Assembly (NCBI GenBank): GCA_002269645.1 | Contig: NIVC01001524.1 | Location: 62,001 to 126,000 of the forward strand | Direction of reading: 5' to 3' | DNA: 64,000 nt | Source of the DNA: Macrostomum lignano | Taxonomy: Eukaryota | In this document: piece by piece, positions 1,801 through 64,000 of the stretch | Numbering within the stretch: the stretch's first letter is position 1 | Layout of the letters: each line of letters opens with the position of its first letter | Made by a program: the position numbers and the translations under genes | The notes under the pieces: generated by a model | Databases searched by the model: none | The model's input: the letters and a program-made list of their open reading frames with translations, nothing else | Told to the model about the DNA's origin: nothing

Positions 1801-2360
1801 GATGGCGTCAAGGGAACGCGATTTTCAAGTCGTTTTGGAACCCGAGTTCGAAGAAATACTGAAAAAAGCAACAAATGACGGCGATCTACAAAGCGTTGAC
1901 CATAAGATAGAAGAAATACGAGACGTAAAAAAGAGGGATGTGATATGCAGGACTGCAGCTTTACATTCATCAAGTGCAGATTTTTCTTCGCCGATGGCGT
2001 CAAGGGAACGCGATTTTCAAGTCGTTTTGGAACCCGAGTTCGAAGAAATACTGAAAAAAGCAACAAATGACGGCGATCTACAAAGCGTTGACCATAAGAT
2101 AGAAGAAATACGAGACGTAAAAAAGAGGGATGTGATATACAGGATTGCAGCTTTACATTCATCAAGTGCAGATTTTTCTTCGCCGATGGCGTCAAGGGAA
2201 CGCGATTTTCAAGTCGTTCTGGAACTTGAGTTCAAAGAAATACTGAAAAAAGCAACAAATGACGGCGATCTAAAGAGCGTTGAGCATATGGTAGAAGAAA
2301 TACGAGACGTAAAGATGAGGGATGATGTATGCAGGACTGCAGCTTTACATGCGTCAAGTG
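1801..2360 (+). repeat. Coding tandem triplication, 192-bp (64-aa) unit at the protein N-terminus
   Basis: GATGGCGTCAAGGGAACG starts at 1801, 1993 and 2185; copies 1 and 2 nearly identical. Confidence 0.9.
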
Positions 2361-12718: not shown

Positions 12719-14999
12719 ATGTCAAAAAGACGCCGTACCGAAGGCGATACGAATAAATCGCGACTTTTCCGCAACTGGCTTCATAAAAACTTACTGGACG
12801 AAGGTCCCGAACCAGAATCATCCCCCTCTACAGACCCAATTACTGCTAAAGAGGCTGTTTTGGAATCGCTCTCAGCTGTTCCCATCGAAAAATCTACTAC
12901 GACTGATGACTTTTTAAGAGAGCTGACTGAGGTAAACAGTTTTGATGACAGTCTTGTTTGGCAAGCTGTCAAGATTTTAAAACTCATGCCCACCCCACTA
13001 TTACTCACCTAAGCATGCATTTTTCCTCCCTTACTTCAGCCCGAGGAGCAACGTGGCATGGCGTGTGACCATGTAGAGTTTGACGACGTTTCGGCTGACA
13101 TGGATAACGAATCTGACTCCGAGAAGCTGTCCAATTATGACGATGATGAAGGGGAGGAAAATCAGAAGCCTACGATGGATACTTTGAATGAAGAGCTTCT
13201 TGTTTTTTTCTTCACGTTTAACATTTCAAACCGAGCCATGCAATTTCTTCTAAATGCGCTGGTCAGCCGCGGCCTTCCTGTTGCAAAAACACTTTACCGA
13301 CTTACTAAATCGACCCGTGAGTCAGTAAAGAAGTTCAACATGGGGAATGGCCACTTCTCCTATCTCGGAATTGCTTCGAACCTTGCTTTCTTACACCGGA
13401 GCGGAATGTTGGCTCTGATCAATCCAACGACAACTTCCGATGGAAGACAAGGGTACGAGGTTGATGCCGATTTTGGTATTGATGGCATGCCAATGTACAA
13501 CTCCTCCAATTATGCCGCTTGGCCGATTCTGGCAAAATTTTCTTGTTTTTCTCGCCCTCTTCCTGTCGCTGTGTACGCTGGTTTGGGCAAGCCCCCTCTC
13601 AATGAATATCTGGCCGATTTCTGCAAGGAGCTGGAGTCCTTCATGGCTGGTTTCATCGAAGTCGAGGGAGTCCTTATCCGCATCCGACGAGTCACTTTTA
13701 TCTGTGATTCACCAGCTCGGGCCTTCATTACTTCTACATTGGGTCATACCGCGCACCATGGATGCCCTTATTGTAGGGCGGTCGCCAAGACAGTCGACCG
13801 GCGAATTGTCTACCCGAAACAAGCTGGAGAATGTCGCACAGCCGAATTCTACCGAGCTAAAATGTAAGTCCTCCTTTTATGCTTCTTTATAAAGGCAGGG
13901 TAGACATGATAGATAGTAGACTGGGGAGCTTAAATAGAAAGGTGATTCGGTAGAAAGGGTAGATTTGGTGTAGATAATCTTGGTACATTAGGTAACACCA
14001 TCTTTCTTTGACCATTTAAATTTTTTTATTTGCAGGGAGTCAAATCAGCGGAAAGATTTGAGTCCTTTGCTGTTGCTTCCAGGCATCCAGCTGCCTGAAG
14101 CTTGCCCACCTGAGCCGATGCACCTGCTATTCCTTGGCGTGGCCAGGCGACTGTTTCACTTTTTGTTCGCCGTTGACGACGGTCGGCGTCGCAAAATTCG
14201 GCCTGATGCGATCACAAGCTTGTCTGATTATACCGAAGCGCGCCAGTCCTTCACGCCGACAAACTTTCAGCGGCGCCCGCGCAGAATTGACCAGGAACTG
14301 AGTCATTTCAAGGCAACTGAATTCCGCACTTGGGTGCTCTACGTAGGCCCCTACTTTCTGCGTAAATTTCTGCCGAGTGAACTGTACAGGCATTTTCTAT
14401 TATTCCACTTCGCCTGCTATATTCTATGCTCAGACCTCCTCCGAGATGCTGAGCTTTTTGAGATGGCTGAAGCCGCCATTCGTCTATTCGTCTACGATGC
14501 CTACCAACTGTACGGTGATAGTTTTTTAACACACAATGCCCATGTACTTTTACACCTGCCCGCATTTGCCAAGCAACGTGGAAACGTCTCTAATTTTTCA
14601 GCTTTTCCATTCGAAAATTATCTGTCTCACCTTAAGCGTCGGCTCCGTGTAACGCGTTTTGCTTCCGCTCACTTATTGAATCAAATGCTATGTATTCGCG
14701 AGTTGCTAACTACTGACCAAATTGCCCCTGTAAGGTATTCAGCTAAAAGTCCAGACAACTGCTGCATTGTGGATAGCAAGGTCATTCGCATAACTAGTGT
14801 ACTTGGCCACAAAGTGAGTGGTGCTGTTTTAACTTTTAAATCCAACTTGTATGATTATCCATACGAGTCTTCCAGATTAGGAATCGGAATTTTTGTTGAG
14901 ACGCGATCTGTAATTGTAGGCGTTCCCCAGAAGAAGTGTTTCTTGTTCCCCCGAAGTTCTGGAGCTTGGCTAGTCATTCCTCTTGCCGAAGCTGAGTAG
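12719..14999 (+). CDS. EnSpm/CACTA-type DDE transposase; exons 12719-12931, 13040-13863, 14036-14999 (666 aa, uninterrupted)
   Basis: Motifs FGIDGMP, WPIL, FICDSPARAF, GHTAHHGCPYC, EPMHLLFLGV, FKATEFR, HVLLHL, SAFPFENY; splice phases consistent. Confidence 0.8.
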
Positions 15000-18355: not shown

Positions 18356-19130
18356 TATCACCCGCCGAAAGAATCGTGTCTCTAGATTAATCCGCTTTCC
18401 AGATATTCGAAGGCGGCGATTCGGGAAAATTCTAATGCATTCAAATGGGCAAATCCGGGAAAATCAATCAGGAATTGCCAAGCTGTATCAGTAGCCTCAG
18501 CTTTGGGATTCTACACATCATTAGAGTGTGCCAGTCGGTATCACCCGCCGAAAGAATCGTGTCTCTAGATTAATCCGCTTTCCAGATATTCGAAGGCGGC
18601 GATTCGGGAAAATTCTAATGCATTCAAATGGGCAAATCCGGGAAAATCAATCAGGAATTGCCAAGCTGTATCAGTAGCCTCAGCTTTGGGATTCTACACA
18701 TCATTAGAGTGTGCCAGTCGGTATCACCCGCCGAAAGAATCGTGTCTCTAGATTAATCCGCTTTCCAGATATTCGAAGGCGGCGATTCGGGAAAATTCTA
18801 ATGCATTCAAATGGGCAAATCCGGGAAAATCAATCAGGAATTGCCAAGCTGTATCAGTAGCCTCAGCTTTAGGATTCTACACATCATTAGAGTGTGCCAG
18901 TCGGTATCACCCGCCGAAAGAATCGTGTCTCTAGATTAATCTGCTTTCCAGATATTCGAAGGCGGCGATTCGGGAAAATTCTAATGCATTCAAATGGGCA
19001 AATCCGGGAAAATCAATCAGGAATTGCCAAGCTGTATCAGTAGCCTCAGCTTTGGGATTCTACACATCATTAGAGTGTGCCAGTCGGTATCACCCGCCGA
19101 AAGAATCGTGTCTCTAGATTAATCCGCTTT
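18356..19130. repeat. 183-bp tandem repeat, about 4.2 near-identical copies
   Basis: TATCACCCGCCGAAAG starts at 18356, 18539, 18722, 18905 and 19088. Confidence 0.95.
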
Positions 19131-21404: not shown

Positions 21405-22268
<864 letters not shown>

Positions 22269-24459
22269 TTTGTCGAGAAAAGCTTTAATAGCCGAATGAA
22301 AAGGGGCTTTTTTAGCTGCTTAATTTTTTTTGACTCGGGTCATTCCATAAAAGAGAAACAGTAACGTAAATTGCTCTCGCACACAGATGGAAGCCTCATG
22401 GTGGCATTTTTGCGCTTCTGGAGAAGCTTAAAAGGCTAGTAATTAACCAAGTATACTACTGAACTAATTTTTAAGTAGTTACAACCTATTAAACTCATAG
22501 AAATGTAAACTTCTAATTACAACTCATTTCATATTGGTTTTCGAATCTATTCTGGAAAAAAATATTATAACTAAGTATCGTTTGTAGATAGACTAAAAAG
22601 CGGCATCACAATTTTACTACACTTCCTACTAAACTATTTTTTTCTGAGAAATTTTCTATTTTGAAAATTTCACGTTTTTGGACGCCATACAGGCTACAGC
22701 TACAATATTGCTAGTTTACTTCTCAAACAAAACTCAGTCTCAAATAAAGTACATCGTTTTAAGCATTTGCTATATGTCAATTCTCTACCATAGAACTTAA
22801 TTGTCGATAATCGGTGCTTTTTAATTTGAAAAGAAAACTTTACTGCACACTTTTGTAAACATGGAGGTAAAAGTTATTATATCGGTAAAGATCACAAGAA
22901 AATTTCTACGCACGAATCCAAGCACCGTTTAACAATGTGCGAAGATGATCTGACTTCTGCAGGAAAATATACTTCTGTCGTAACAGATCCTCACGCAGAA
23001 CACGGCCAATAAAACTCTAAAAGTTTAATTTCGGGTTTTTTTCTCTCTCTATCTCTCTCGCGAAATTCTGCATCCATCTCAGTTCTTTCTTTTGACTTAG
23101 CCGAATACGTAATTTTAATTCCTTAACTTGTTTCATAGTGTAGTATGACTATTTTTTTAGCCATAATAACTTTGTTGATTGAGTATAGCTATTGTCCCAG
23201 GGTATACGCGTCCTTCTCTGGGGCCTTTGAGTTGGTGTTCTCACTTTCTTGCGGTAGATGTCTAGCGGTCTAAGGTTCTTACAGCTCTTAGTCTCTCCTA
23301 TCAGGCCGTCAGAGAAGACCGTATAAACTGACGGGATCTCCTAGTATCTAAGCTGAGTTTGATTCTCTCTAAGAGTTGCTCTAAGTCACAGTTAAGGCAA
23401 ATGATCGATTTGAGACTCGGGTTTCTGCCAACTGGATAATCCAGAAACTAATTCAAATGGAGCAATTCAAGATCGAAAACTGCGCAGGAAAAAAACGAAG
23501 CGCCGCTCCAGTTTGAGATGAGCGTCTATTTGTACCAATTAGCATGTTTGGCCTCCCCCGCCGCCGGTGGGGTGTCTTCGCGTTATTAGCAACGGCGGGG
23601 GGTTTTGAGCAATAACAAACTGGGACTCAGTCCCCTAATTGTACATGAATTTAGTTAGTTCTAGTAGGTTGCTAAGTGTGGAGGTTAGAGATTATTCGGG
23701 CTTTCGCAAATCTATGTGTTGAGTTGGATAAAATTTGGGATAGAAAGATTATAGAAAAAGTGCTTAGTTTTCCGTCTCTACACTCTGTCCATGAATGATT
23801 AAACAGTCCTCTGTTTCTCTCGGTTGTCAGGCAGCTTGGGGTTGATCTCGCCTTCTTGGGCAGCTTCGGGTTGGGTAGGAGTCTCTAGGTGGGCCTCACG
23901 TTTTCTCCCTCAGGGTGCGCCAGAAGATGCCGCGTGCCGCGTTGTTCTCTAAGTCAGGCTGCTGCTCAGTTTGCTTTTCCCGGCCGGTTTAGTCGCCATT
24001 GTGCCTGCGGCGGGGTGACGCTACTAACTGGAATGGAAGGAGGCTTTGTTAGATTCGGCTATTCAAATTGACTTGACAGTTGATTAATTATCTTAAAGCT
24101 GCTTCTGTTTGCTCTTCTAATAGCTATATAGGGGTTCCATTGTACTCTTCTGCCTCGCCCTTCACTGCGCCTGGGCTTTTCATAAATTTCTACCTATCTT
24201 CTAACTTGGGGTCAAAACTTCAGATTTCTAACTCTTATATGATTCCCCCTTTTTTCGAAATCCTTGTGCTAACAAGGATTTGATCAATCGACATCAGGGC
24301 TAAACGACATTGCAGGTACTGAAATTATCAAATATAAGACGTTAGAAATCTGTATACGAGTCAAGCGTCTGGAGACGTAGATAGTTAAAGGTGTAAAGAG
24401 GCGAAACCTGGGAAATTAATTGAGGGGAAACAGTTCACAGTCGTATCTATGGGCCGTAT

Positions 24460-24932
24460 TTAGTTATCTTCAAGTTGAACATTGCCGCTTCTGGCCCATA
24501 GGTACTGACGATATCCCTGCAGTGTGGGCCAGGGTCGAATGGTACTGGAGGCCGTGTAGTCGCCTCCCCTCCACGGTATCTCCGTGGGGGTCATCTCGCG
24601 TCCCCACTCGGCGTCGTTGTCAACTTGGGTGGCCACTGAATGGCCCCCATCTATGTCGCTCTCGGCGACTTGCGTCTGCGCATCCTTTTTGATGCACTTG
24701 TGGACGTGGAGATTTACGTCCACAAAGGCTTCGCCGGGTCGCCGAGCATAAGCGTCTTCGGGTGAGTAAGTGGCCATGGGAATGCTCTGAAATTAAGCAA
24801 GAGTGTGCTATTGATTTTCCGTGTGGCGGTTTTAGTGTGTATCGTCCTTGGCCTAAAGCTTCGCTTAGCGGTTCGACTGTACATTAGATCTATCCCCTGC
24901 GTACATGGGGTGGTGGGTGTGGCGGGACGCAT
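24460..24932 (-). CDS. Small ORF of unknown function in the 3' region of the retroelement (two overlapping frames, possibly one frameshifted ORF)
   Basis: ORF-track frames 24714-24932 and 24460-24777 overlap at AGAGCATTCCCATGG; no recognisable domain. Confidence 0.3.
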
Positions 24933-25093
24933 GGGGGAGGGGTTTTGAATCTGGACTTGGAGCCGCAGGGGGGGTCCTTTCTTTTCTAATCGCCGGCTCC
25001 TTCCGTTTTTAAACGCGGCGCATGTGAGAGTAGCCCCTAAAGTTATCTATTCAGCTTGTTTTCCGATTGCCCTTAACGCTAACTGATCTCATT

Positions 25094-25300
25094 ATGTCTG
25101 AGTTTGCTATGCAACGTTTGATTCGCATTATTGGCGAGTTGAAGGAGCGTCTACACGCCGTGGAAGACCGGTCTGTCGGTCTCGAGCGGCGACTGCTTTA
25201 CTTGGAATCACGATCGGTTTCGCAAGATTATGGGCTACGTACACTACAAGGTTGGCTGGGCGGAGTGGGGGCGGCGGCCTCCTCCTGTGTCTACTCCTAG
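25094..25300 (+). CDS. 68-aa antisense ORF with coiled-coil heptads
   Basis: MSEFAMQRLIRIIGELKERLHAVEDRSVGLERRLLYLESR, hydrophobic residues at heptad spacing. Confidence 0.35.
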   Translation: MSEFAMQRLIRIIGELKERLHAVEDRSVGLERRLLYLESRSVSQDYGLRTLQGWLGGVGAAASSCVYS

Positions 25301-25455
25301 TTCTATTATTCTGCTGCCTCTACCGGCGTCGTTACCAGGCCCTACCTGCCTAGTAAGCAAAATGATTGCATTGATTAGATTATTTAATAACAATATATAT
25401 TCGGGAAGTCTATTTTGTATGTCATAAACATGGTTATCAATCGGGTGTATAAGTG

Positions 25456-26616
25456 TCAGTGGGCGTCGAATATCACGACGTTGAGAATAAAGAGTAACAT
25501 AGAGAATATATCGAGAGATACAATTCGGGTGCAAAAATTATCAGGATGAGCAATATTTGTGGATACAATTTGTTTCAAGGTTAATGTGGTTAGTGTTAGA
25601 TTATATAGCGTTGTAGCTCGCTTCAAAAATTCACTTTCGTTTGGTCTAGTCTTATCCCAAGAGTAGACCGCCCTGCTGTGAGGCTGCATTGAACAAAGGA
25701 GCGTACCTGTGGGTGAAGGTGCCTCAGGGATGAGGCGGATTGGTATCCCACCAATTCGCTACAACCCTAGGGCAGTATTTCATCCCTTGTATTATCCTTT
25801 TGTTCTCTTGCAACCGGGCCTTCCTATAGCACCTCAAGGGTCCAGGTTGGGGCCTTCTGCTGCTTTCAACGCTGTGAAAAGGTGGTGCCATTGTAGGTTG
25901 GCCGGTGAATACGCAATCGTGGCTATCGATTGCCGTTCCTTGGGTTTGATTTCGATGCCGTGATAATTTAAGGTGTTGAGTAGATAAGTGATAAGCATGT
26001 CGGCTTGGAGTGATAGTGTGCTGGTCGGTCCACGAGGATGGATTAGGGTTGTCGTCACCCTGCTGTTCCATACTATGATACGGAGACAAGAGAACGCAGC
26101 TGTGTCGTCGTAGAGGAAAAAGAGCGTCGTGTTGAAGTTCAAGATAGAATAGTCAGAGAGTAACCAGCGTGGGTCTTTAGGATCTGACAGGATGCGTCGC
26201 GTAGTAAGGTGTGTGACGATGTTAGCGGGTATTAGTGGCATGTCAAGCATCTGCTGGTGAATGTCAAACAGTTTCGTTTCATCATACCGCGCCGGCTTGC
26301 TTTGAACTACCGTCTGTGCCGCCAGAGCTGTTTGGAATCGCTCTGCGAGTGTTTTAGCCTGGCGGAAATCGTTGCTCGCCGATGTTGCCGTGCTTGCTTG
26401 TCGTGGGAGCGTAGGTCGGCGTCGTTGCCATTCCTGTCGTAGCTTGTCCAGCTGTTGTTCTGTCCATGTTGACATATCTTGCTCGGGCCACTTAGGGTCA
26501 TCAGTTTCGGTGTGAGATGTTGGCTTGAAGAGAGGTCGAACTATAGGACACGGTGTCTGGGTATCTTCGTCTCCCAGGGTACAGTCATCTAGCGTATCGA
26601 GCTGTCGGTCATACAT
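25456..26616 (-). CDS. ORF3 downstream of integrase (260 aa open; may extend to 25456 through frameshifts), unknown function
   Basis: Long open frame 26616-25834 begins exactly after a splice-acceptor-like CCCTTCTAAAATTACTCATTATACCAG. Confidence 0.6.
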
Positions 26617-26776
26617 CTGGTATAATGAGTAATTTTAGAAGGGTAAAATTAAGTATTGATATTTGAGTGAATAGTTAGTGTGGATATCTATATCTAGTGT
26701 GCACAGCACGCCAACGAATGAATACGTAAATCAAATAGTCTTTATAGTCTCTGTACTCTCCCCCCATCTCCTGACA

Positions 26777-29700
26777 TCATTTGTCTAGGAGTATGGGTTT
26801 GCTCCTCAGATTGTACTTCTTTCGAACTGTGTCCGCGAGCGTCTCGTCATCAGCTTGTACGCCCACTTCCTTGCTGAACAGTTGCCGGTGCTGGCGTTGC
26901 AGTCTTCGCGGATCACTCGGGCGCAGATCGGGGAGCAGTACCTTAGGTGTTGGCGATGCTATTGGCTTTAGCCTGTCCGTGTGCACCTGAAAGGGTTCTT
27001 GAGTCGGATCGTCAATTTTCCTTATCATGACGGACGTGACACTATTTCTTTTCACAATTTCGTATGGACCCGTGAACTTGGCTTGATGCTTTCCCTGTCT
27101 CATTGGGATCTGTAGCATAACTCTGGTGCCTATGGCTAATGTAGGGGCCATTCGGTTTTTGTTAGCTCTGCTTGTGTTCTTTTCCTGGGCCACTTTGAGA
27201 TGGTGTCTGGCTATGTCTCTAGCCAGGGTGATAGCTTCTTGCATTCGGGCTGCATAGGACGGTTCATCCATGTATCTTACTAGGTTCAGCTGAGTTGTGA
27301 GCTCCGTGGGCATCAGGGGTTTCCTCGCGAAAACCAATTCGAAAGGAGAATAGGTTGAAGAGGATTGCTTGGCTGTATTGTAGGCGTAGATTGTGGCTGA
27401 TAGATATTTATGCCATTCGTTTGGATTCTCCGCAGTGTAATGTCTAAGCATGTTATGTAGGGTAGAGTGTAGTCTCTCTACGTGGTTTGCTTGCGGATGG
27501 TAGGTAGACGAGAAGATGTGCTTGACTCCCAGAATTTCTAGAGCTTCAGCTAATAGCGATGCCGTGAAATTTTTTCCATTATCGGTGGAAATTTCTATCG
27601 GGATTCCAAACATACAGAAGACTTGGAACAAAGTTTCGGCTGTGGTTTCTGCTGATAGATCTGGAATCGGGAATGCAAAGGCGAATTTTGAAAAACAACA
27701 CAGGATAGTCAGGATGTGGGTGACGGTCTCGTTCCGGATTTTCGTGGGGACCATGGGTCCTACTAGGTCTACTGATAGCTTGTCCATTGGTTTCATCGGA
27801 ATTTCAGGCATTTGGATGAGTCCCTTATGCAGTTGGCCAGATTTGTTCTTAGCGCAATCCATGCAGTCTTGACAAAAGGTTCGAATATCGGAAACCATTG
27901 AGATCCAAAAATAGTGTCGCCTAATTCTTTCTAGGGTTTTGTCAAAGCCTAAGTGCGCTGCTAGTGGTAGTGCGTGTAACGAGTGACAGATTGTTTCACG
28001 GTACTTGAATGGGAGCACTATTTGTTGGGTGTGATCTGCTGTCCTGTGAATGATTCCGTGAATGTCCGCATATTCCGATAGATGTCGCTGGATGTGTCTT
28101 TTGTATCTCATAGCTAAGCTGTCATCCATGGGCTTTTGTTCCCATAGTGCTCGAATGCCTTGGCAGAATGGGTCTTCTGCTTGAGCCTCTTTTAGGGCTT
28201 GCAGGTGTGGTATCGGGTGCTTGATCGTGACAAAGTTAATGGGTGTCTCTTGGTCCTCATATAGTCTTGAGAGTGCATCTGGGACTGCGTGTTTGGTGGA
28301 TGCGCCTGGGACGTACTCAATTTGCATTTGAAACTGTTGTAAATATAGAAGCCATCTGAGTACCTGATTGTTCCGCAGGGTTTTCCCTGTGAGTAGACCT
28401 CTGAGCGGTGCGTGATCTATTCTTAGCAATGTGGGTATTTGTGCTGCGTACAGAAATTGTTCGAATGTCTTGAATGCGTAAAAGACGGCTAAGAGTTCTA
28501 AATGAGTGACCGCATATCTTGTCTCTGCCTCTCTCAGTTGTCGACTCGTGAATGCTATTGGTTTTTCTTTTCCTGTCTCATCTTTCTGTGAGAGCATTGC
28601 GCCTATACCTTTTGTAGAAGCGTCGCTGGAGACAATGAACTGTTTATTAAAGTCAGGGTGAGTGAGCCTGAGATCTTCTGCTATCCATTTTTTCATGTCT
28701 TCAAAGGTCTGGGTCGCTTCTTCTGTCCACTTTAGTGGGGTTTTGGATGCTTGAGCCTTAGTGTTCGGTGTGCCCTTAAGCAGGTCTGTGAGTGGCTTGG
28801 CTTTCTTGGCGTAGTTAGGTACGTGTTTGCGAAAGAAATTGCAGAGTCCTAGGAAACATCTGAGCTGTGTGACATTTTGTGGCTTTGGTACCTTCTGCAC
28901 TTTGTCGACTAAAGCTCTATCAATCTGTATTCCATTTTTGTCTATCTTATGTCCTAGGAATGTGATTGTGGGCTTAGCGAATTTGCACTTTGTAATTTCA
29001 ACTTCATGCCGTACTTTCCTAGAGCTTCTAGTGTAGCTTTCAATGTCTCGAGATGGTCTTCAAATGTCTCATTGAAGACAAGTAGGTCGTCTACGTATGT
29101 TGAGACTCTGTTAATCCCTTGAAGGATTAAGCTAGCTGCTCTAGAGAGGGCTGCTGGTGAGGTTTGTAGACCCATTGGGGCTCTGGTGAAACGTAAGTTT
29201 GTCCGTCGGGCGTGGAGATGCCACAATACTTCTGACTTTCTTCTTCTAGCGCCACTTGAAAAAATGCTTGCGCCATGTCGAGAGTAGTGAAATATTCTGA
29301 TCCCTTTAATTTGGCTAAGAGGTCTGGGATTCGGGGCATGCATTGCCTTTCTGGGACCAGGATTTGGTTGAGGTCCCGAAAATCAACACAGAGACGGTAC
29401 ACTGGTTTGGCTTGAGGCGATTCCGGTTTCTTCTTGACCAATAGAATTGGTGAGATGTACGGGGTGGCTGCTTTTCTAAGAATTCCTTGCATTTCCATTC
29501 TATCGATGATTTTCTGGAGTTCTCCCGTGAGTTGGTATGGGATTGGGTACCGTTTGTTGAGCTTAATCTCCACGTTAGGCTTAATGTGAAGCTCGTGTTT
29601 CGCTACATCTGTGTATCCTATTTCCTCCTCGGATAGGCAAAAGGCTTTCTTGTTGTCCCAGAGAACCTTAATGAGCTGTTCTTTCTGGGATTCTGTCAGG

Positions 29701-32700
29701 TTGGATCCTTTGAGATCAATGGCGTTCTTGAACTCTTGTTCCGTCATTGTTGGGGTTTCTGACTGGATTTCGGCAATTTCAAAGGCTTGGATTTCTGTAT
29801 CGAAAGATCCTATGTTGGTGTCTGGATATAGTGTCATTGGGGTTGCCGATTCGTTTGAAATGATGACTTGAACCTCTCCTGACTCGTCAGGGTATACCAA
29901 TTCGGGTGTAAGGCAAATGGGTTTCTTCTCTAGGATACGTTCGTTGGGTTCGAAAAGCATAGCTGGAGGTAGTTTCTCTCTGGCGATGGCTCTTGCGGAA
30001 ATTCGAGTTGTTTCCCATGGATTGAGATTGACTGTAGAGACTAATCTGATGCAGTTAACGGGTTCTTTTGTAGTGATAGCGAGGATGTCATAGCATTTCC
30101 CGTTGAGATGGATATTCTGTTGCTGATAGTTTACGAGCACGCCCTGATTTAGTTGAGATAAGTAATCGATGCCTAATAAGACTTGATAAGTTCCTGAACT
30201 CAAATTGGGAATAACGTGGAACTCAACGTCAGCCGTGGTGTCGCCAGCTTCCACAGGGAGGTTGATCATGCCGGATTGCTGTAGTCGTGAGCCTTGTACT
30301 CCTTGCAGTTCAACTGTGGCCGGCTTGAAGGTCCTGCCGTATCGCTTTGCTGTGGCTTCGTCGATTAAGGATCGTTCGGCTCCACTGTCGATCAGGGCTC
30401 GGCAGGATCGCGTTCCCACTTGAAGTCGGGTGATTGTGTACTTCTGCTTCTGGCCGTTGTTGACCGTCGCCACCATCGGAGGTGGCCAACTGGACTCTAT
30501 CTTCGGGTAGAGTCCTGTTGATGCTGGTGCTGGTGGCGTCCACGGTGGCGGGCGCTGTGGTGCCTGTCTGGTTGTCGTGGTCTCCTGCCGCGTGTTCTGG
30601 CTTGTCGAGTTCGCTACTAGCGGTGCTCGTAACTCCTGTAGCTCCTGCTGTTCTTGCTTTGCAGCAGCTTTGCGCTGGATCGTGCGGATGCCAGGACGTT
30701 GGTACTTCTGTTTGTTGAGTCTGTGGCAGATAAGGATCATTTGGTATAAAAGATATATGTAGAACCCAATGGCAGCTACTCCTACAGCGATATCGAAAAG
30801 ATTCACTCGCATGCCTAGCCATGGTAGCCAACTTGCTGGATCAAAGGTGCCTTCCGCTATGGTGGCATCTAACGGTGGAAGATGTATAGAGTGAGAGGTT
30901 TCTGACTTGGGCAGTTTGAAAACAGTTCTTAAGAACTCTCTCTGGTCATTTAGCTGGTTGTACAAGTCGTGTACTGTGACCGGGCTTTTGAGATCGGCTA
31001 TCCTGATGTCTCCATCAGGAGTGAATATGACATGCTGAATCTCTGGGGGTTTTATGAGGGTTACCCCCACGCTTCTCTTTCTAGCTTAGTGACCGTTTGC
31101 ACAGTAAATTTCGTAAAGTTGAGGTCTGTTTTGTAGATTTCGTCTCCTTTTGGTAGGAAATACGACGTTTGGTTAGAGCAATCGTGAAATGGCGGGTGTT
31201 CCTTTTGGATTTCCAGGGTTCTAACATCTAGAAAGCCTGTGTGGTTCATGTTGAATATCGTGAAGGCAATTGGTGGTTTGGTAAAGCAGATATTCTCATC
31301 CCATCTTGGTTGGTGAAAACGAAAGTTTCTGATGGGTAGGCACTTAGAAATGACTACATGCTGTGCTAGCGTGGTGGCTTTTAATTGGCTGTCTTTGAAC
31401 AAAGTGCGCGCTGCTAGGGTGGGCTGCATAAGAAAAAGATCTTTTATGTACCGAAACAGTGTTTGCTGATGCTTGCATTGTTGTAGTATCATGTTTCGAG
31501 TAAGGTCGCCTATTCTGTCTTCCATTGTGAGTTCTAGCCCTTGTAATTTTGCTGCTAGCGTTGTGTCCGATGTGAGGTCTCGTTTTGGTCTCTTAGCGGT
31601 GCTTGAATTGTTGAATGAACCTTCAATTATGCTGCGAAACTCTTGGTCTGAGCCGTGCACCTGGACTAGTTTACCTTGTTCCGACTTGTATAGCTTTACT
31701 GTCGTGTCTCCACATTGTAAGTCCTTAGTCTGAGGTGGATGTTTGAATGTGAGGGCAAACGTAGCGTCGTTAGACATGAACCATCCAGTGTGAATTTTGC
31801 CTTGAATGAATCTGTCTGTTTGATAGGGGCAGTCTATCTCTGCGCTGGGTGTCCATACTAGGCGGTATTGTCTATCTCCTCTCACTGTGTAGCTGAGATC
31901 ATAGTATTCCATTACGGCCCAGAGTCTGTCTGGTGCCTGTCGGTTCAGTGGCGAGTCCTTCTCTGCCGTGAGGCTAGTAGTCGTGGTACAGGTTCCTGTC
32001 TTGTAGTCGCATTGGCCTATAGGGAGGGCTAACGAAGACATCTTTTTCTCTTCCACAAAGAATGAGACCTGGGTGATTAGGACTGACACTGTTTGAGTAA
32101 AGGTTTGAGCTGTGCTGGCTGTAGGTTCCAATTCCTGGGTTGTCCACTTATGAGTAGTGAATCGTTTGGCTTGTCCCATAGTCTTAGCTCCTGCTTCTAA
32201 AGTCCCATCTTGGGTTCGGGTGTTTTCTTCCCATGTTTTACAATCGTCCTTCGAAACTGAATGTTGTTGCACAGTAACAGTCATGGCTGGACTTACCATC
32301 TCCGTTGAAAGACGGTTAAGAGCGGAATCTTTTGGCTTACTCGTGAACGTGTAGGTCTCTCGGTAACATATCTTCAGTGTAGACCGGTGTGATACCTGGT
32401 TCTCCTTGTAGACTGTGATGTTGATCGGTTGCCGATGCTGTTGAATGCTACTCGGGACTGTGCATTCGATGTCCGGAGGCAATTTGAAGGCTTGAAGGCT
32501 GTTCGCTTCTGGGCAGTAGAGTGGTGTGTCCACGTAGCTGCTGTGCTGTGCCGTTGTTGCGCTGCCAGCCGCGGTGCAGAACAGTATGAGCAGTAGTATT
32601 CGCAGCAGCCATCCTGTGGTTGAGGCTGTTCGTCGGCTTTGGCTCCATGTCGGTGTAGTTCTCGGCTGTCGAATCGCTATCTGTGGCTTGGGCTCGTCAG

Positions 32701-33037
32701 TGTCAGGACATTTCTCGATCTTCTGTGGTCGCTCTTGCTTCTCCGTCCGGTCGCTCTCGGAGCGCGGTGTTAGTGTCGCCGTCGTGATGTGGCCGATCTT
32801 GACCTTGACTGCCTTGCGAAGTTGTCGCTTGGCTTGAATGATGTCGTCGCGGGTTACCACTGGTTCCGTAACTGTCTCTTCTTGCTTGGTTGACTCTGCT
32901 GGAGTGTCCGTCGGTGGCTGTTGCTGAGGCTGCTCCTTGGTTACTTCTGCGGTTTGCCGTGGTTGCGGTGTTGGTGTCACCGCTGTATTGTAGCCAATCT
33001 TAATTATTCTTTTGCTAGCCGTACTAGCTGCCACCAC
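26777..33037 (-). CDS. Env(gB-like)-PR-RT-RNaseH-integrase polyprotein, about 2087 aa after three 1-nt corrections
   Basis: Signal-like WLLRILLLILFCTAAG, Cys-rich ectodomain, furin site KRPKR (31580-31594), TM AVGVAAIGFYIYLLYQMILIC, PR ALIDSGA, RT YRLCVDFRDLN and YVDD, RH SDASTKGIGAMLSQ, IN HHCC / DLVGP / TDNG / VERLH / GPY. Confidence 0.85.
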
Positions 33038-35644
33038 AGTTGTTACAGGGGGGATTCCTGTGCACCTAGAATACGACTAAATGCCACCAAAGTTGTAATA
33101 AAGCTATTTCTCCTTAACAAATCTACTGGTTATTAATTGTCTTTCTACTGGTAGCGCATGTACTTCTATTGGTAGCGTATGTACTTCTATTGTACTTTCT
33201 GGCCTGAGCGGTCTAATAGCACTGTCTATTCTATTCCTATACTTCCCCTAAAAATATTATTCTCTCAGTCCTGGGCGTTCCCTGGATCAGAGGGTCACAG
33301 CTTATGCTCTTTCTCTGCCCTGAGGCGATCTTTCCCTCGCTCTGAGGCGGTTCTCCTGCCCTGAGGCGAATTTACTATTACTGCCCTGAGGCGATTTCTC
33401 GCTTTTTAGCGGATCTCAATACTACTCCCGATTTGGGGGTTTTACTATAGAAATGAATAAGACACTCTGAACAATTTTCTGATCAAGTTTTAGCTACTGT
33501 TAGAACACACGAAAAGCACAAGTTGATTTCTTGGCCCACTCGGGGCTTCTATTTATACTAGAGTCTCTCATCAAGTCAAACAAATAATTGTGAAAAATAT
33601 TTTTGTAAATCACAACATTTAAACAAAAACACTAGTAATTTCTTTTTAGCGCGGATTTGAACTAAAGTTTCTAAGAAAACAAGTTACTATTAGCACTATC
33701 GTACAGTATCATACTATTATTAATGCACTGTCTCACTATGGCTTTAAATGAAGAGCAGATCGCGTCATCAATTAAAAAAATTGACATAATTGACAGACTG
33801 ACTATAAAATGTATGCTATATATATATGTATATCTATATATATATCTAGGCTTGTCTCCTACTCCCAGAGTCCCAGGCCTATAAGTATCAAAGTATGAAT
33901 AGGCCTAGGCCTATGACTTTGTTCTATGCTTTAATAGAAACAGAATGCATGTCTAGACCTAGTGATGTTGTCCATTAATAATTCATTAATCCATTAATAA
34001 TTCAGAAATTCAGTTACATACATAGAATATAGATCAGTATTTTTTGTTGTCTTTTGCATTTCATTATATTATATTTATATATACCTACCTAGTTCTAGCC
34101 CCTAGGCTAGGGCTAGGCTAGTTTTAGTGACCTAGCTAGTAAGTAAATCTTAATTAAATAGGTCTACTCTGTTTTTGTTTGTTTTATATATGCTTATCTA
34201 GATTTATAAATAGGTAGACTGACATATCTGTAAAACTTGGTTTTAATCCCTCCTTGATTTTAAACACTTAGGTTAAGAGTGTAATGTCTACTTCTAGTGA
34301 ATAGTGTTATAACTAGGCTTATCATTTTAATTTTAAAATAAAATAGGCCCTACTTTACTAAAAATTGTAATTGCTATATAGGGTATAGTTTTTATGAATT
34401 AGAATTAAACCTGGATGCTTAAATATAGGCTTATGGTTGTTAGAAAGTTATCTTAAGCCTTGAACTACTATTTGAAGAATATAGATAGGCATAGTAAAAT
34501 CTAAAAGTATTTATGCTAGATAGGCCTAGATGAATGATATGAAAAATATAGAATAGAAGAAAAACATAGGTCTAAATTTAATTAGACCATAGAACTTTTA
34601 CAAAAGTTATTACTCTGACTGTTTAAAAACATAACAACGATATTTGTGTTATATTTTAGTTATTTTGAATTAAATATTAATGTTTATAATCCTAGAACTT
34701 TATTACAATTTTCCCTTTCATTCATGCTACTTTACATGGTCAATATGGCATCGCTACTTATTGGTTCCAAGCTTGTCTTTATACCAAGTGGCAAAGTGGC
34801 AAGCATCCTATGATTGCTAAAAGAAAAAATGAAGCCAGCCTAAAGTAAAAATGCAACATGATAAAGAGCCCTAAAGTAGGCCCTATTACTAAAAGCTCTT
34901 ATAGACCTACTTTTATTGATAAGAAAGTAAGCTTAAGCTTTCTAGCAATATTGACTTTAAAATCTCAGTACTGGACTTTTTCAGTTTCAATTATTAGCAA
35001 ACCAATTTAATTGTACATTGTAGTAAAAGATGCACCTAGTTGTTTTCAGATGTTTCTGCTTCTATTTTTTGCTAAAAGTATTGTTCACCCTAATTTCATT
35101 TTTCCATTGTACCATTAGTATTTTTCTATTGAATGTGTGCTTAACTTTTGTTTTAAAGTTGACTTATTTTTTGCTTGTGCTATTTCCCTTGTGCATACAA
35201 GTTTTATTTCATGAGCATATATGTGTATTTGTTTACATTTTCACAAATAAATATGTCTACTTTATTTTGATTGTTCAATGACATTTGATTTTGTTCTGGC
35301 AGCTTACTAGCACAATACTAAAAGTGCAGAATCAAATAAGAAAGTCCTGTCATAACTCGTGTTCTTTATTGGAATTAGATTAGTGCATCGGGGTTTTATA
35401 AATGGATTACTAAACAGATCTGGGAAGATTTGATAAGACGGACAATGCATTCAATTGGTAAAGCTTAATACATCTTACAAGATCTGCCCAGATCTCCTAA
35501 GATCTGCTCGTGCAGACCGTGCAAGATCTTCCTGCAGATCTTGTAAGTTCTGCCTATATATTTAAATAGTGCAGATCTGTTACGTTCTTGCAAGAACGTA
35601 GCGAGAAGCTCCAGACAGATCTGCTAAGAAATGGCATGACGATT

Positions 35645-35986
35645 TCATCTACAGTAGCCGGGCCTACATGGCCATGGAAATCCACCTAAGACACGCTTTT
35701 CCCGGCCCGCGGATGCAGCACGCCGTTTGGTGGTTGAGCTCGGCATAAGAGGTTCCTCGATTGAGTCGTCGACAGCTCTGCTCGACGGATCCACAACGTC
35801 GTCATCCTCTGGAAGTGGAAATCAGGGATCAGAAGTCTTTGTAAGAGAGCACTCTAAGGCCTATCAGATCGGCATAACGCGCGTGATTTCAAACCTACCG
35901 ATCTCAGATTCGGCTTGTACAATGGCAGTTGAACAGAAGAGCAGCGCAAGAAGCGCAAGCTGCATCAGCGAGCTTCGGTTTGACAT
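35645..35986 (-). CDS. 83-aa secreted prepropeptide; coding exons 35986-35899 and 35808-35645
   Basis: MSNRSSLMQLALLALLFCSTAIVQA (signal) ESEIEDDDVVDPSSRAVDDSIEEPLMPSSTTKRRAASAGREKR VLGGFPWPCRPGYCR*; 90-bp GT-AG phase-1 intron; AATAAA at 35365-35370. Confidence 0.75.
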
Positions 35987-36285: not shown

Positions 36286-36864
36286 GCTGAATTTTGGGCT
36301 AGTAAGCAAAAAATGCATTGCTTTTAGCTTTTGCGATCCCTTAGCCCTTTTTGAGTGTGTTAGCGCAGCGTCTTTCTCCAAAAAAAATTGAAATAGCTAC
36401 CTGCTCAAAATTTAATATCAGTGTACCATTTTTCAAATAATGAGAAATTTCTCGGACTACTTTTTACTTCTTACTTTTTGTTTGGGCAAGTTTTCAAATT
36501 TATATGATTTTACCTTATTATTCCATTTAGAAAAAGGTATTCTCAGTGCATTAAAAAACCCTTGAAACATTTCGAATTTCGAAAACGAATTCCGATCTCT
36601 GACTCTTGTGGTTGAACCATAAATATTATAGAAAAAAATATTGAATTCATAAGTTTTTTTAACTTGAAACGAATTGCACAGGTTTGATTTTTATTTTCTG
36701 CAAAATATCAGTCGAAATTAAAAATGTAATTTTGCCTTTACGATCCACGGTGCTCATAAATACTTGAACTGCATTTTAGATAAACTTCTTTTCACCCTCG
36801 ACAGACACCCTCTGAAACACCTGTACACATTAAAGAAGCAATTGAGGCACCTTCCGTGTCCAGA

Positions 36865-37438
36865 TGCACAAGTGACTCATGGTTGGTGATCGGTGAGGTG
36901 CACAAGTGACTCATGGTTGGTGATCGGTGAGGTGCACAAGTGACTCATGGCTGGTGATCAGTGAGGGGCACAAGTGACTCATGGTTTGTGATCAGTGAGG
37001 GGCACAAGTGACTCATGGTTGCATGGTGATCGGTGAGGTGCACAAGTGACTCATGGTTGGTGATCGGTGAGGTGCACAAGTGACTCATGGTTGGTGATCG
37101 GTGAGGTGCACAAGTGACTCATGGCTGGTGATCAGTGAGGGGCACAAGTGACTCATGGTTTGTGATCAGTGAGGGGCACAAGTGACTCATGGTTGGTGAT
37201 CGGTGAGGTGCACAAGTGACGCATGGTTAGTGATCGGTGAGAGACACTTGTGACTCATGGTTGGTGATCGGTGAGGTGCACAAGTGACTCATGGCTGGTG
37301 ATCAGTGAGGGGCACAAGTGACTCATGGTTTGTGATCAGTGAGGGGCACAAGTGACTCATGGTTGGTGATCGGTGAGGTGCACAAGTGACGCATGGTTAG
37401 TGATCGGTGAGAGACACTTGTGACTCATGGTTGGTGAT
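36865..37438. repeat. 34-bp tandem minisatellite, about 17 copies, most containing TGACTCA
   Basis: CACAAGTGACTCATGGTTGGTGATCGGTGAGGTG recurs at 36867, 36901, 36935 and onward. Confidence 0.95.
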
Positions 37439-42590: not shown

Positions 42591-43090
42591 ATATCGGGTA
42601 ATGTTGTGATAGAAAACTGCAGTTGGATACAGTAGCTATATTTACAGTACTGCGCAATAATAATTTCATCACAAGTACCATTTGTGATGAGTCAAGGTAG
42701 GTTACATTGTTTAAGAAAAGTTAGGAGGATGAAAGCAAAAAAATCAAAGTCTAGGCTTACTAGACTTTAAAATTTACCATCTTTCTGCATCTAGATTATT
42801 GCCTTAAGATGCCGATTGTGTCGGCGAAACATGTCGCTTGAACATGAAAGAAATTGCGATTTGGTGTTATTTGATGCGATTTGATGTAATAGGAATAAAT
42901 TATAAATGATGACTATTTTGTTCCGTAACATTTAAGCTTCAGGAAAATTGCGAGTAAATCGACACAAAAACATTGGAATGGCCAGAGTTTTAGAAAAAAG
43001 TAGACTTGGTTTTATAAAGATGCGAATACCTTTTGCAACTACGTAAGCAATAAAAATATTTAAAATACGTCTGAAAATCAAACCAAAAAA

Positions 43091-43738
43091 ATGAGCGGCG
43101 ATGAAAATGAGGATACGAGATTGATGGAATTATTCACCCAGCAATTCGAACGTTTTGAAGACAGTGGATTGAAAAATGAATACCGTTTTGCGACTGTTAA
43201 ATATCCATCGATTCAAGGTCGCATAAAACTCGTTTTGTTCATAGTCAACAAGGTGGCCGGCCAAGATTCCCGGGATCAGTTTGCTGTCAGCTGTCACCAT
43301 TTAGAACTGGTGAAGTTTCTTGTGAAGACAGTCGCTGACCAAAGTGAGAGAGATCAGTGCTGCAAGGAAGCTGCGGAATCTGCTGCATCGAGTGGTTATT
43401 TAGAAGTGGTGAAGTATCTTGTGGGGACAGTCGCTGACCAAAGTGTGAGAGATCAGTGCTGCAAGGAAGCTGCGGAATCTGCTGCATCGAGTGGTTATTT
43501 AGAAGTGGTGACGTATCTTGTGGGGACAGTCGCTGACCAAAATCTGAGAGATCAGTGCTGCAAGGAAGCTGCGGAATCTGCTGCATCGAGTGGTTGTTTA
43601 GAAGTGGTGACGTATCTTGTGGGGACAGTCGCTGACCAAAGTGAGAGAGATGAGTGCTGCCGAGAGGCTGCTTTTTTTGCAAGCCAGCACACGGAAGTTT
43701 TGCGGTTACTACTGAAGACGAAAGCCAGAAATTTATGA
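43091..43738 (+). CDS. 215-aa protein of 33-aa Cys-Cys ankyrin-like repeats; paralog or fragment of the 1802 gene family
   Basis: 99-bp tandem unit encoding VGTVADQSVRDQCCKEAAESAASSGYLEVVTYL; same pattern as RDKCCLTAVEHAAFNGHSRVVDYL in the 1802 ORF; ends HTEVLRLL. Confidence 0.6.
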   Translation: MSGDENEDTRLMELFTQQFERFEDSGLKNEYRFATVKYPSIQGRIKLVLFIVNKVAGQDSRDQFAVSCHHLELVKFLVKTVADQSERDQCCKEAAESAASSGYLEVVKYLVGTVADQSVRDQCCKEAAESAASSGYLEVVTYLVGTVADQNLRDQCCKEAAESAASSGCLEVVTYLVGTVADQSERDECCREAAFFASQHTEVLRLLLKTKARNL

Positions 43739-44259
43739 TGGAGCTGTCAAAGAACTGTTGAATTGGAACTGTGGAAGGCAGGATCAAATTAAGTTAGAAA
43801 TGACTTCAGATGTACGAAAAGCGCGGTTCGGAGGTAGTTAATCATTTCGAATTCATGTTAGGTGTCGAAACGCTTGCTGTTATTCAAGAATTTGATGAGT
43901 TTTTGCTAATTTTGAGTTCTTGTCCAAAATTGTATTATTAATCATCAATTAAATATTGGATTATTTCAAGTGTTTGGATCTTTTAATAATGCCGTTCCTG
44001 CCACAGGAACAGGTTTAGCACCACAACACAATCTGAATTTGTTTGTACCTTTTCTTTTGCAGGGTATTTTTCACGAATATTCTGTGCAGAAGCAGCTTTG
44101 CCTTTACTTGTTGCAGCACCTCCAAACACAAACGGAAGTCCAAGATGCAAAAAATGAAAACTACTGCTCAGGGGCGTCGCCATGGATTTTATGGTGGGGG
44201 GACAAAGCCAAGAATTCGACATGTACATGTACATTATTTTCAGAATCGGTGTTGTCAGC

Positions 44260-46718
44260 GCTCATTTTGGCGCCGCAGGCACTTTTTTGAGCGGCGCAGG
44301 CACCATTTTGGCGCCGCAGGCATTTATTTTGGCGCCACATGAACTTATTTTAGCGCGGCAGACACTCATTTTAGCGCCGCAGGCACTCATTTTAGCGCCG
44401 ATGGCACTCATTTTAGCGCCGCAGGCACTCGTTTTGGCGCCACAGGCACTCATTTTAGCGCCACAGGCACTCATTTTAGCGCCGCAGGCACTCATTTTAG
44501 CGCCACAGGCACTCATTTTAGCGCCACAGGCACTCATTTTAGCGCCGCAGGCACTCATTTTAGCGCAAATGGCACTCAGTTTAGCGCCGCAGACACTCAT
44601 TTTGGCGCCTCAGGCATTTATTTTAGCGCCACAGGAACTCATTTTGGCACCACAGGAACTCATTTTGACGCCGCAGGCACTCAATTAAGCGAAAATGGCA
44701 CTCAGTTTAGCGCCGCAGACACTCATTTTGGCGCCGCAGGCATTTATTTTGGCGCCACAAGAACTCATTTTAGCGCCGATGGCACTCAGTTTAGCGCCGC
44801 AGGCACTCATTTTGACGCCGCAGGCACTCATTTTAGCGCCGATGGCACTCAGTTTAGCGCCGCAGGCACTCATTTTGACGCCGCAGGCACTCATTTTAGC
44901 GCCGATGGCACTCAGTTTAGCGCCGCAGGCACTCATTTTGACGCCGCAGGCACTCATTTTAGCGCCGCAGGCACTTATTTTGGCGCAGCAGGCACTTATT
45001 TTGGCGCCGCAGGCACTTATTTTGGCGCCGCAGGCACTCATTTTGTCGCCGCAGGCACTCGTTTTGGCGCCGCAGGCACTCGTTTTGGCGCCACAGGCAC
45101 TCATTTTAGCGCCACAGGCACTCATTTTAGCGCCACAGGCACTCATTTTGGCGCCGCAGGCACTCATTTTGTCGCCACAGGAACTCATTTTGGCACCGCA
45201 GGCACTCATTTTGACGCCGCAGGCACTCATTTTGGCGCCACAGGAACTCGTTTTAGCGCCGCAGGCACTCATTTTAGCCCCGATGGCACTCAGTTTAGCG
45301 CCGCAGGCACTCATTTTGGCGCCGCAGGCTTTTATTTTGGCGCCACAGGAACTCATTTTGTCGCCGCAGGCACTCGTTTTGGAGCCGCAGGCACTCGTTT
45401 TGGCGCCACAGGCACTCATTTTAGCGCCACAGGCACTCATTTTAGCGCCACAGGCACTCATTTTGGCGCCGCAGGCATTTATTTTGGCGCCACAGGAACT
45501 CATTTTGTCGCCGCAGGCACTCGTTTTGGCGCCGCAGGCACTCGTTTTGGCGCCACAGGCACTCATTTTAGCGCCACAGGCACTCATTTTAGCGCCACAG
45601 GCACTCATTTTAGCGCCACAGGCACTCATTTTAGCGCCGCAGACACTCATTTTGGCGCCGCAGGCACTCATTTTAGCGCCGCAGGCACTCATTTTGGCGC
45701 CGCAGGCACTCATTTTAGCGCCGCAGGCACTCATTTTGGCGCCACAGGCACTCATTTTAGCGCCACAGGCACTCATTTTAGCGCCGCAGGCACTCATTTT
45801 AGCGCAAATGGCACTCAGTTTAGCGCCGCAGACACTCATTTTGGCGCCGCAGGCATTTATTTTGGCGCCACAGGAACTCATTTTGGCGCCGCAGGCACTC
45901 ATTTTAGCGCCGCAGGCACTCATTTTAGCGCCGCAGGCACTCATTTTGGCGCCACAGGAACTCATTTTGGTGCCACAGGCACTCATTTTAGCGCCGCATG
46001 CACTCATTTTAGCACCGCAGGCACTCATTTTAGCGCCACAGGCACTCATTTTAGCGCCTCAGGCACTCATTTTAGCGCCGCAGGCACTCATTTTAGCACC
46101 GCAGGCACTCATTTTAGCGCCGCAGGCACTTATTTTAGCGCCACAGGCACTCATTTTAGCGCCTCAGGCACTCATTTTAGCGCCGCAGGCACTCATTTTA
46201 GCTCCGCAGGCACTCATTTTAGCGCCGCAGGCACTCATTTTAGCGCCGCAGGCACTCATTTTAGCGCCACAGGCACTCATTTTAGCGCCACAGGCACTCA
46301 TTTTAGCTCCGCAGGCACTCATTTTAGCGCCGCAGGCACTCATTTTAGCGCCACAGGCACACATTTTAGCACCGCAGGCACTCATTTTAGCGCCACAGGC
46401 ACACATTTTAGCACCGCAGGCACTCATTTTAGCGCCGCAGGCACTCATTTTAGCTCCGCAGGCACTCATTTTAGCGCCGCAGGCACTCATTTTGGCGCCG
46501 CAGGCACTCATTTCAGCGCCGCAGGCACTCATTTTAGCTCCGCAGGCACTCATTTTAGCGCCGCAGGCACTCATTTTGGCGCCGCAGGTACTCATTTCAG
46601 CGCCGCAGGCACTCATTTTAGCGCCGCAGGCACTCATTTTAGCTCCGCAGGCACTCATTTTAGCGCCGCAGGCACTCATTTTGGCGCCGCAGGCACTCAT
46701 TTTAGCGCCGCAGGCACT
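44260..46718. repeat. 21-bp minisatellite (GCACTCATTTTAGCGCCGCAG), more than 110 copies, inside MITE-like flanks
   Basis: Unit read directly; flanks CAGGGGCGTCGCC at 44168 and GGGGGGACAAAGC at both ends. Confidence 0.97.
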
Positions 46719-49631: not shown

Positions 49632-49742
49632 GTAAGAAAGATTCTTATTGTTAAAATCTGACAGCATTCCGAGGCATTAGCTCTGTTCAACTTGCATTAA
49701 TTAGCTGTATTTAGCCGTGCCAAGATTTACACAGCAGCGAAA

Positions 49743-63337: not shown

Positions 63338-64000
<663 letters not shown>

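Follow-up and report, generated by a model that had tools for sequence, protein, structure and literature searches.

A probable truncated copy of a young gag-env-pol Ty3/gypsy endogenous virus in Macrostomum lignano

Described relatives and the Macrostomum lignano locus

In canonical Metaviridae, env is found downstream of the integrase, where the profile of the ICTV, the international committee for virus taxonomy, places it (PMC7879559), and the original prediction made for the present locus had assumed the same. The locus is a 64,000-nt stretch of the Macrostomum lignano genome (contig NIVC01001524.1, positions 62,001 to 126,000), hereafter the window; all coordinates are window positions, and the retroelement in question lies on the minus strand. 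The element shares long terminal repeats (LTRs), a primer-binding site (PBS), a polypurine tract (PPT), capsid-nucleocapsid and the protease (PR)-reverse transcriptase (RT)-RNase H (RH)-integrase (IN) order with canonical Metaviridae and Drosophila errantiviruses (PMC7879559), whereas its env is situated between gag and the protease, in the same frame. The ICTV criterion for errantiviruses, env downstream of the integrase, therefore does not describe it, and its Env is predicted to be of class III, while that of canonical errantiviruses is of the F type. In Tor elements, as described in PMC4402516, env is located after pol.

The closest described systems are the GAG-ENV-POL elements with a glycoprotein B (gB)-type Env reported from Nematoda, Bryozoa and Platyhelminthes, which are not monophyletic (Chary and Hayashi, eLife 2026, PMC13524379) and for which that paper uses the name "ancient errantiviruses" with HSV/gB-type Env. 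The gene order is thus already published, and the suggestion that the locus represents a possibly undescribed architecture has to be withdrawn. Three families of such elements, A (that of the window), B and C, were found in the Macrostomum genome. As with the elements of PMC13524379, the window's element has a Ty3/gypsy Pol, a gB-type Env between gag and pol with the ectodomain between two membrane segments, a flatworm host, multiple copies and LTRs. The 12-nt PBS of family B equals that of the single Macrostomum entry in PMC13524379. Family A, by its tRNA-Glu PBS and 1037-bp LTR, as against another PBS and an LTR of about 864 bp, is distinct from that entry, although its copies may be among the uncurated candidates of the survey; no Macrostomum Env row is found among the rows listed from its supplementary file 2. 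The main text of PMC13524379 speaks of three open reading frames (ORFs) and does not contain the terms "fused", "single ORF", "polyprotein" or "frameshift", while its figures or repository may already show a single ORF; tail motifs and accessory ORFs are not mentioned in the sections covered. Cer1 of Caenorhabditis elegans, which is also of the Ty3/gypsy type, likewise has a single long ORF and produces a subgenomic RNA carrying the host spliced leader, but no env between its gag and pol is described in the relevant parts of PMC3315495, and in the window's element the leader joins a separate downstream ORF.

The window's element is a defective copy of a new family, the architecture itself being already known. 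Nematode endogenous retroviruses (NERV; Sacco et al. 2022, J Gen Virol 103:1739, cited in PMC13524379) reportedly have a continuous gag-env-pro-pol ORF, a Nyamiviridae-like glycoprotein and extra ORFs. The Macrostomum families share such a single ORF, and the best viral fold match obtained here is a Nyavirus G; however, NERV reportedly form a clade restricted to nematodes, whereas the Macrostomum families have a flatworm host and a separate RT clade, and they were not filed as NERV. In its working the element is like NERV, as NERV is reportedly defined, and it belongs to the GAG-ENV-POL Metaviridae.

Structure of the window copy and its fuller relatives

It is likely that the window holds a copy, cut short at its 5' end and broken in frame, of a young GAG-ENV-POL endogenous virus of the Ty3/gypsy group (Metaviridae), and that the data are best explained by a single Gag-Env-Pol polyprotein of which this copy is a defective version. 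The features of the copy are as follows (transmembrane, TM).

23198..23202, no strand: remaining 5-bp target-site duplication, single copy (duplications at 6/6 solo LTRs and around the two-LTR copy C1189; empty site C284)
23203..24239, minus: 3' LTR, 1037 bp, TATA...TATA ends (flanks the C1189 copy on both sides; also present as many solo LTRs)
24241..24255, minus: PPT, adjoining the 3' LTR upstream (identical in C1189 and C368)
24460..24777, minus: accessory ORF3, 105 aa, no family (open in subfamily A2, 39% identity)
25834..26616, minus: accessory ORF2, 260 aa, no family (open in subfamily A2, 41–43% identity)
26777..29059, minus: end of RT, RNase H and integrase with HHCC, DDE and GPY module (PF17919, PF17917, PF17921, PF00665; motif positions)
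28954..29382, minus: middle of RT in a separate frame, YVDD at 29086–29097 (PF00078, E 2.7e-9)
29127..31085, minus: Env stem, TM helix, spacer, protease and RT start in one frame (stop to stop, 652 aa)
30378..30398, minus: aspartic protease active site ALIDSGA (PF13975, E 4.5e-9)
30414..30725, minus: cytoplasmic tail/spacer, about 100 aa, with LYPKI at 30498–30512, a candidate late-domain or tyrosine sorting motif (motif comparison across subfamilies)
30726..30791, minus: Env TM helix (hydropathy peak kept in all three families)
31061..32557, minus: predicted class III fusogen ectodomain of herpes gB/nyamivirus G type, furin site RPKR at 31580–31591 (PF24664 above cut-off; fold model of a sister copy)
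32558..32611, minus: putative internal signal peptide/first membrane segment (sequence; counterparts in families B and C)
32612..33001, minus: remnant of the Gag-Env spacer and end of the element, gag and 5' LTR gone (similarity to C1189 stops at 33001)
32998..33001, no strand: point of truncation, where element and host flank share a 4-nt microhomology (empty site G000:C284:421870/421872)

The stop-free passage from the TM helix through a Pro/Thr/Gln-rich linker into the protease and RT, on which the original prediction was built, was confirmed in the frame at 29127–31085; of RT, only the N-terminal part is encoded there (PF00078, E 1e-7), and YVDD together with the rest of Pol is found in other frames. 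A genome search with the TM-PR segment gave 68 matches, 30 of which were fetched as loci and 28 of which had the protease motif. The TM helix was located in the open frame of the protease, 126–132 residues upstream, in 27 of the 28 loci, which correspond to 24 of 25 distinct copies (window included) with identities from 27 to 99%. Contigs of all four sequencing runs examined (from four studies, among at least 20 runs with matching contigs) bridge the junction, which is also present in family C and in proteins of other organisms.

The window copy itself contains three frame changes, one near 31061–31085 and two inside RT (~28954 to 29190), and its env ectodomain is encoded in a fourth frame (31061–33076), where the first methionine occurs only at or after residue 260 and none precedes the signal peptide. 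It cannot make the full polyprotein. Assembly copies in general carry scattered frame breaks. The three breaks of the window were not found in the contigs of the runs examined, but as these contigs possibly originate from sister copies, mutation and assembly error are not distinguished as their cause.

Comparison with sister copies revealed that the window insertion (23203–33001) is truncated at its 5' end. The C1189 copy, 99% identical to the window, has the 1037-bp LTR at both ends (LTR pair 99.9% alike) and sits inside a 5-bp duplication. Between its 5' LTR and env there is a segment of about 2.8 kb without a counterpart in the window, which includes the PBS, a leader, a capsid-like region sharing the reading frame with env, and three CCHC knuckles. 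In all three 5' LTRs examined, the PBS is a 13-nt match to tRNA-Glu(CTC) plus CCA and is complementary to the 3' end of a genomic tRNA-Glu(CTC). A gag match was found directly upstream in seven of nine copies of the window's family group, and in 17 of the 68 genome matches (counted by hand) it shares one stop-free frame with TM-PR. Locus L031 has a 1038-aa frame with three CCHC knuckles and PF00098 above cut-off, and the closest clusters to the Gag of subfamily A2 are those of Retrotrans_gag (score 0.93). Gag is likewise in frame upstream of env in families B and C. Self-comparison of window positions 19001–40000 revealed no LTR pair; the LTR was recognized only through sister copies.

The two flanks of the window insertion are adjacent at C284 (left 270 bp, 98.5%; right 3.8 kb, 100%), and the absence of the insertion from this matching locus, together with the near-identical copies, indicates recent movement. 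The 5' end may have been lost by a post-insertion deletion of the LTR and gag or by faulty one-end integration, both of which fit the 4-nt microhomology inside the Gag-Env spacer, or the end may be a misassembly; no contig bridging the truncation junction was present among the contigs listed for the runs, and one contig of the presumed DNA run X9 stops exactly at 33001, a hint of a fork at most.

Several observations concern the surroundings of this end and other reduced copies. The Gag-Env spacer contains an internal duplication of about 200 bp (32764–32969, 84% identity), within which the truncation falls. The target of the element is a high-copy repeat (33000–35660) with very high run depth and about 40 copies at 92–95%. 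The C368 copy, too, is without its 5' LTR and the beginning of gag, and a short variant of the env segment 32299–32324 is common to this copy and the window but differs from C1189. Internally deleted or partial family A derivatives (C1063, C1064, C255, C1205, C2712, C947, C1113 and C1567 of G000) retain gag, or the 3' accessory region and LTR.

The RT sequences of families A, B and C are 38–42% identical and their Env sequences 22–26%, while subfamilies within A share 64–70% identity. In all three, one frame encodes, in this order, Gag, a spacer, a signal peptide, an Env that has a furin site, the TM helix, a second spacer, PR, RT, RH and IN. The fuller relatives of the window copy have the layout LTR, tRNA-Glu PBS, gag, signal peptide, gB-type env, TM helix, PR-RT-RH-IN, two accessory ORFs, PPT and LTR, and the coding region of fuller copies is a single ORF of ~2,500–2,860 codons. 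The frames are complete in families B (2370–2538 aa) and C (2859–2866 aa). That of family A was pieced together from overlapping frames, one of 1436 aa in C1405 (Gag start region into the protease) and one of 2458 aa in C1189 (from within the capsid region onward). No slippery heptamer for a programmed frameshift was found in the gag-env and env-pol stretches of family A that were scanned. Between A and A2, the proportion of nonsynonymous differences (pN, 0.20–0.34) is below that of synonymous ones (pS, 0.76–0.83) for env, spacer and PR, as in purifying selection. Copies of family C are located at G000:C270:3300-11760 (L047), C247, C1672 and C4280, and database proteins with its spacer are labelled Macrostomum lignano. 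Some family B copies lie 10–16 kb apart on the same contig and strand (G000:C669, C2121, C1130, C2447), possibly as tandem arrays.

Based on a structural model of a sister-copy ectodomain (pLDDT 78.6), the Env ectodomain is predicted to be a class III fusogen: the herpes gB match has an E-value of 4.6e-21 with a TM-score of only 0.34–0.40, and the best viral fold match is that to Nyavirus G (E 1.4e-26). The furin site and 12–13 cysteines are kept in Env. Among solved structures, Pol is nearest to Ty3 (E 1.3e-63), followed by foamy virus Pol (5.9e-40) and, more weakly, other retroviral RTs, which together with the PR-RT-RH-IN order bears out the Ty3/gypsy assignment. The assignment to Metaviridae is based on the two LTRs of C1189, the PBS and PPT, the gag with nucleocapsid of sister copies and the pol order, the capsid fold not being among these characters; that to the gB-type GAG-ENV-POL group is based on the gene order and on two hydrophobic segments that enclose the predicted class III ectodomain.

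Searching 1.84 billion proteins with a profile returned 300 matches, of which the best 150 were used for domain counts. A CCHC knuckle precedes env in 44 of the 53 homologs with at least 250 residues upstream, and a hydrophobic segment is found just before env in 48 of these 53, compared with 13 of 1060 control windows. The protease motif follows env in 41 of the 50 homologs with at least 200 residues downstream. Knuckle, env and protease occur in one chain in 26 homologs, and an RT-like motif before env in two. Among 20 proteins looked up, those with a name belong to Globodera, Caenorhabditis, Meloidogyne, Macrostomum lignano (family C) and a bacterial bin; the Globodera, Caenorhabditis and Meloidogyne proteins show the same domain order. 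Taken with the spliced-leader match described below, this points to M. lignano or a closely related species as host. The bacterial entry, an env-PR-RT protein labelled "Gammaproteobacteria bacterium" (P0051), is probably animal DNA in a metagenome bin. Four gag-env-pol proteins (P0018, P0071, P0080, P0014) have at least two protease-like stretches after env, and P0014 has one before env too. An earlier, weak word-based search of longer proteins with residues 1–340 of the fused ORF gave no match and was superseded by the profile result. A midpoint-rooted RT tree with 19 rows and no env-less outgroup places A, B and C in one clade (99/98), apart from the nematode-containing clade (100/99).

Two alternatives to this picture concern the reality of the junction and the place of Gag. 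Local assembly errors are possible, as the assembly copies have scattered frame breaks and the three breaks of the window are not shared by the run contigs, but a misassembly or one-off rearrangement is hardly conceivable for a junction that recurs in 24 of 25 copies of two families, in family C, in four of four runs and in proteins of other organisms, and this explanation is refuted. The original prediction had proposed an element devoid of Gag, whose Env would occupy the position of Gag and could load Pol into enveloped particles. The window does lack gag and a 5' LTR, the C13 copy has no gag match nearby, and 9 of the 53 longer homologs have no CCHC motif before env. Nevertheless, the window copy stops abruptly within the Gag-Env spacer, at the microhomology, and has neither a start codon before the signal peptide nor a promoter LTR or PBS; seven of nine related copies have gag upstream, and the apparently gag-less protein P0028 has a longer cluster mate (P0163) with a knuckle before env. 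For family A, the proposal is refuted by the two-LTR copy C1189, and in general it is very improbable.

Env tail, accessory frames and a model of assembly

The spacer between the Env TM helix and the protease was compared for short motifs. P[TS]AP, PPxY and YPx[LI] are late-domain motifs that retroviruses bear in Gag, as described in PMC12789967. All six spacers of the subfamilies compared contain [LIM]YPx[IL], which is absent from the rest of the scanned frames, and five of the six contain P[TS]AP (once elsewhere), although the spacers are only 23–55% identical; PPxY was found in the main B subfamily. The strict motif pattern was picked after A and B had been seen, and family C, seen later, has PSAP and LYPTL in its spacer (2 of 20,000 shuffles; 32 with the looser pattern). 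For comparison, 52 spacers from outside proteins were delimited, 16 of which were dropped (same host, duplicate, weak TM helix or odd length). Of the 36 kept, 14 contain at least one of the three motifs, against a shuffle mean of 2.5 and a maximum of 8, related proteins among them not being independent, and P[TS]AP occurs in four against 0.4 expected. The density of motifs is 0.44 per 100 aa in the spacer and 0.03 elsewhere, and none of 15 post-knuckle spacers carries one. No description of budding-type motifs concentrated in a TM-protease spacer was found in the literature searched.

Of the two accessory ORFs, ORF2 has pN 0.41 against pS 0.78 between A and A2 and a CAG acceptor directly before its ATG, kept in both. 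It has no homolog outside the genome according to a word search and no usable ESM Atlas match; a Pfam match to APP_E2 was below cut-off and was rejected. ORF3 has no Pfam match, and no homolog of either ORF was detected in the 5.5 kb after family B pol. The acceptor of ORF3, TTTCAG, ends at 24787, 9 nt before the ATG, and in contigs of the presumed RNA runs X4 and X5 (two studies) a 23-nt loose end is joined there. Its sequence is that of the 3' part of the spliced leader (35 nt) published for Macrostomum lignano in PMC8629364. No run among those listed is recorded as RNA. The joint rests on one contig per run, among the loose ends listed, and as the 23-mer has 150 genomic matches with at most one mismatch, a DNA copy of the joined form is an alternative; at one such match, Rfam gave no spliced-leader family. 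The leader at the ORF3 acceptor suggests that the element is transcribed, that it uses host RNA processing and that the ORF3 message is trans-spliced. The literature searched contained no description of an accessory ORF of such elements receiving a host spliced leader.

Based on this organization, the product would be one double-pass membrane polyprotein with Gag and Pol in the cytosol and Env in the lumen. Gag and Env would be parted by signal peptidase at the luminal face, and Env would be cut by furin. As the signal segment would hold Gag at the membrane and the Env anchor would do so for Pol, capsid, enzymes and fusogen would collect at one membrane in about equal amounts. Since Pol is in frame behind the Env anchor, it would be tethered to the fusogen tail and would need its own protease for release, unless splicing intervenes; this part of the original prediction is retained, and the part that dispensed with a canonical Gag is not. 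Env trimers may bring the protease domains together, after which the protease would release Gag and RT/IN, and the motifs of the tail spacer may recruit host sorting machinery or the budding machinery of the endosomal sorting complexes required for transport (ESCRT). tRNA-Glu would prime reverse transcription, integration would yield the 5-bp duplications read from the sequence, and two accessory proteins would be made from spliced RNAs, at least one through host spliced-leader trans-splicing, for which the leader joint is partial evidence. ESCRT recruitment for budding is the task of Gag in retroviruses. We tentatively propose, with some doubt, that these elements form an enveloped particle out of the single double-pass polyprotein and that the late (ESCRT-recruiting) domains have shifted from Gag to the protease-tethering Env tail, so that trimerization, protease activation and budding are coupled in a 100-residue spacer, with accessory proteins of no known family supplied by trans-splicing.

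Two other readings of the single ORF have to be weighed. It may be a coding layout only, with splicing giving separate Gag-Pol and Env messages and a normally untethered Pol. Splice acceptors are in use for the accessory ORFs, and Cer1, as described in PMC3315495, combines one long ORF with a spliced SL1-bearing RNA. On the other hand, no env-skipping joint was found among the joints listed for four runs (a weak negative, since contigs drop rare forms), two presumed RNA runs each have one contig across env and pol, and in 48 of the 53 long homologs env is immediately preceded by a hydrophobic segment, which a polyprotein would require; such splicing appears improbable. A reading that is rather unlikely, but less so, keeps the polyprotein and takes the tail motifs as ordinary sorting or turnover signals (YxxPhi, PY), with Env serving as a membrane anchor or cell-cell fusogen and no free particles. 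YxxPhi signals are known from glycoprotein tails, every YPx[I/L] motif found here fits them, and the window's subfamily is without P[TS]AP and PPxY; moreover, PMC13524379 states the entry mechanism of gB-type elements to be unknown. This reading is countered by the presence of P[TS]AP in five of six divergent subfamily spacers and its excess in the outside spacers, and by the maintained furin site and cysteines.

Several points weigh against the single polyprotein with a budding-competent tail. Each of the four near-identical sister copies of family A examined is interrupted somewhere between the start of Gag and the end of the integrase. The capsid is weakly supported by Pfam, the PDB profile matches are mostly to the knuckle, and folding the first 114 residues of Gag as a single sequence gave no information. 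Env-skipping RNAs could escape contigs. The window's subfamily has LYPKI alone, which fits an ordinary YxxPhi endocytosis signal too, 22 of the 36 outside spacers are without any of the three motifs, and the looser pattern YPx(1-3)[LI] is weakly enriched (7 against 3.1, reached by 28 of 1000 shuffles). In addition, topology, cleavage and stoichiometry are derived from general knowledge of membrane polyproteins for an element known here from its sequence.

Other features of the window and significance

In the 3' region of the element, a short antisense frame, coiled-coil-like, is found at 25034–25300 (plus strand). At 25352–25594, 241 bases with plus-strand GT..AG ends are skipped in one contig of low depth from run X4, possibly from an antisense transcript. 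Outside the element, the window contains ankyrin-repeat frames, a Mab-21-like domain, DUF4218 and a major facilitator superfamily (MFS) transporter frame (1766–7138, 13992–14999, 43064–43738 and 49701–51449). Tandem repeats are located at 18356–19130, 21500–22260, 36862–37438, 44178–46900 and 63360–64000, and comprise 183-bp units, ATAG microsatellites, a short-period array and a 21-bp minisatellite of more than 100 units.

So far, genome surveys are the only source of knowledge on the GAG-ENV-POL group. The motif-rich Env tail provides a specific and cheaply checked hypothesis for how particles with a fusogen in the middle of Gag-Pol may bud. If true, it would represent a third assembly route for a reverse-transcribing virus, beside the Gag-driven budding of retroviruses and the Env-dependent budding of foamy viruses. 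The Macrostomum genome offers three divergent single-ORF families, some of them recently mobile.

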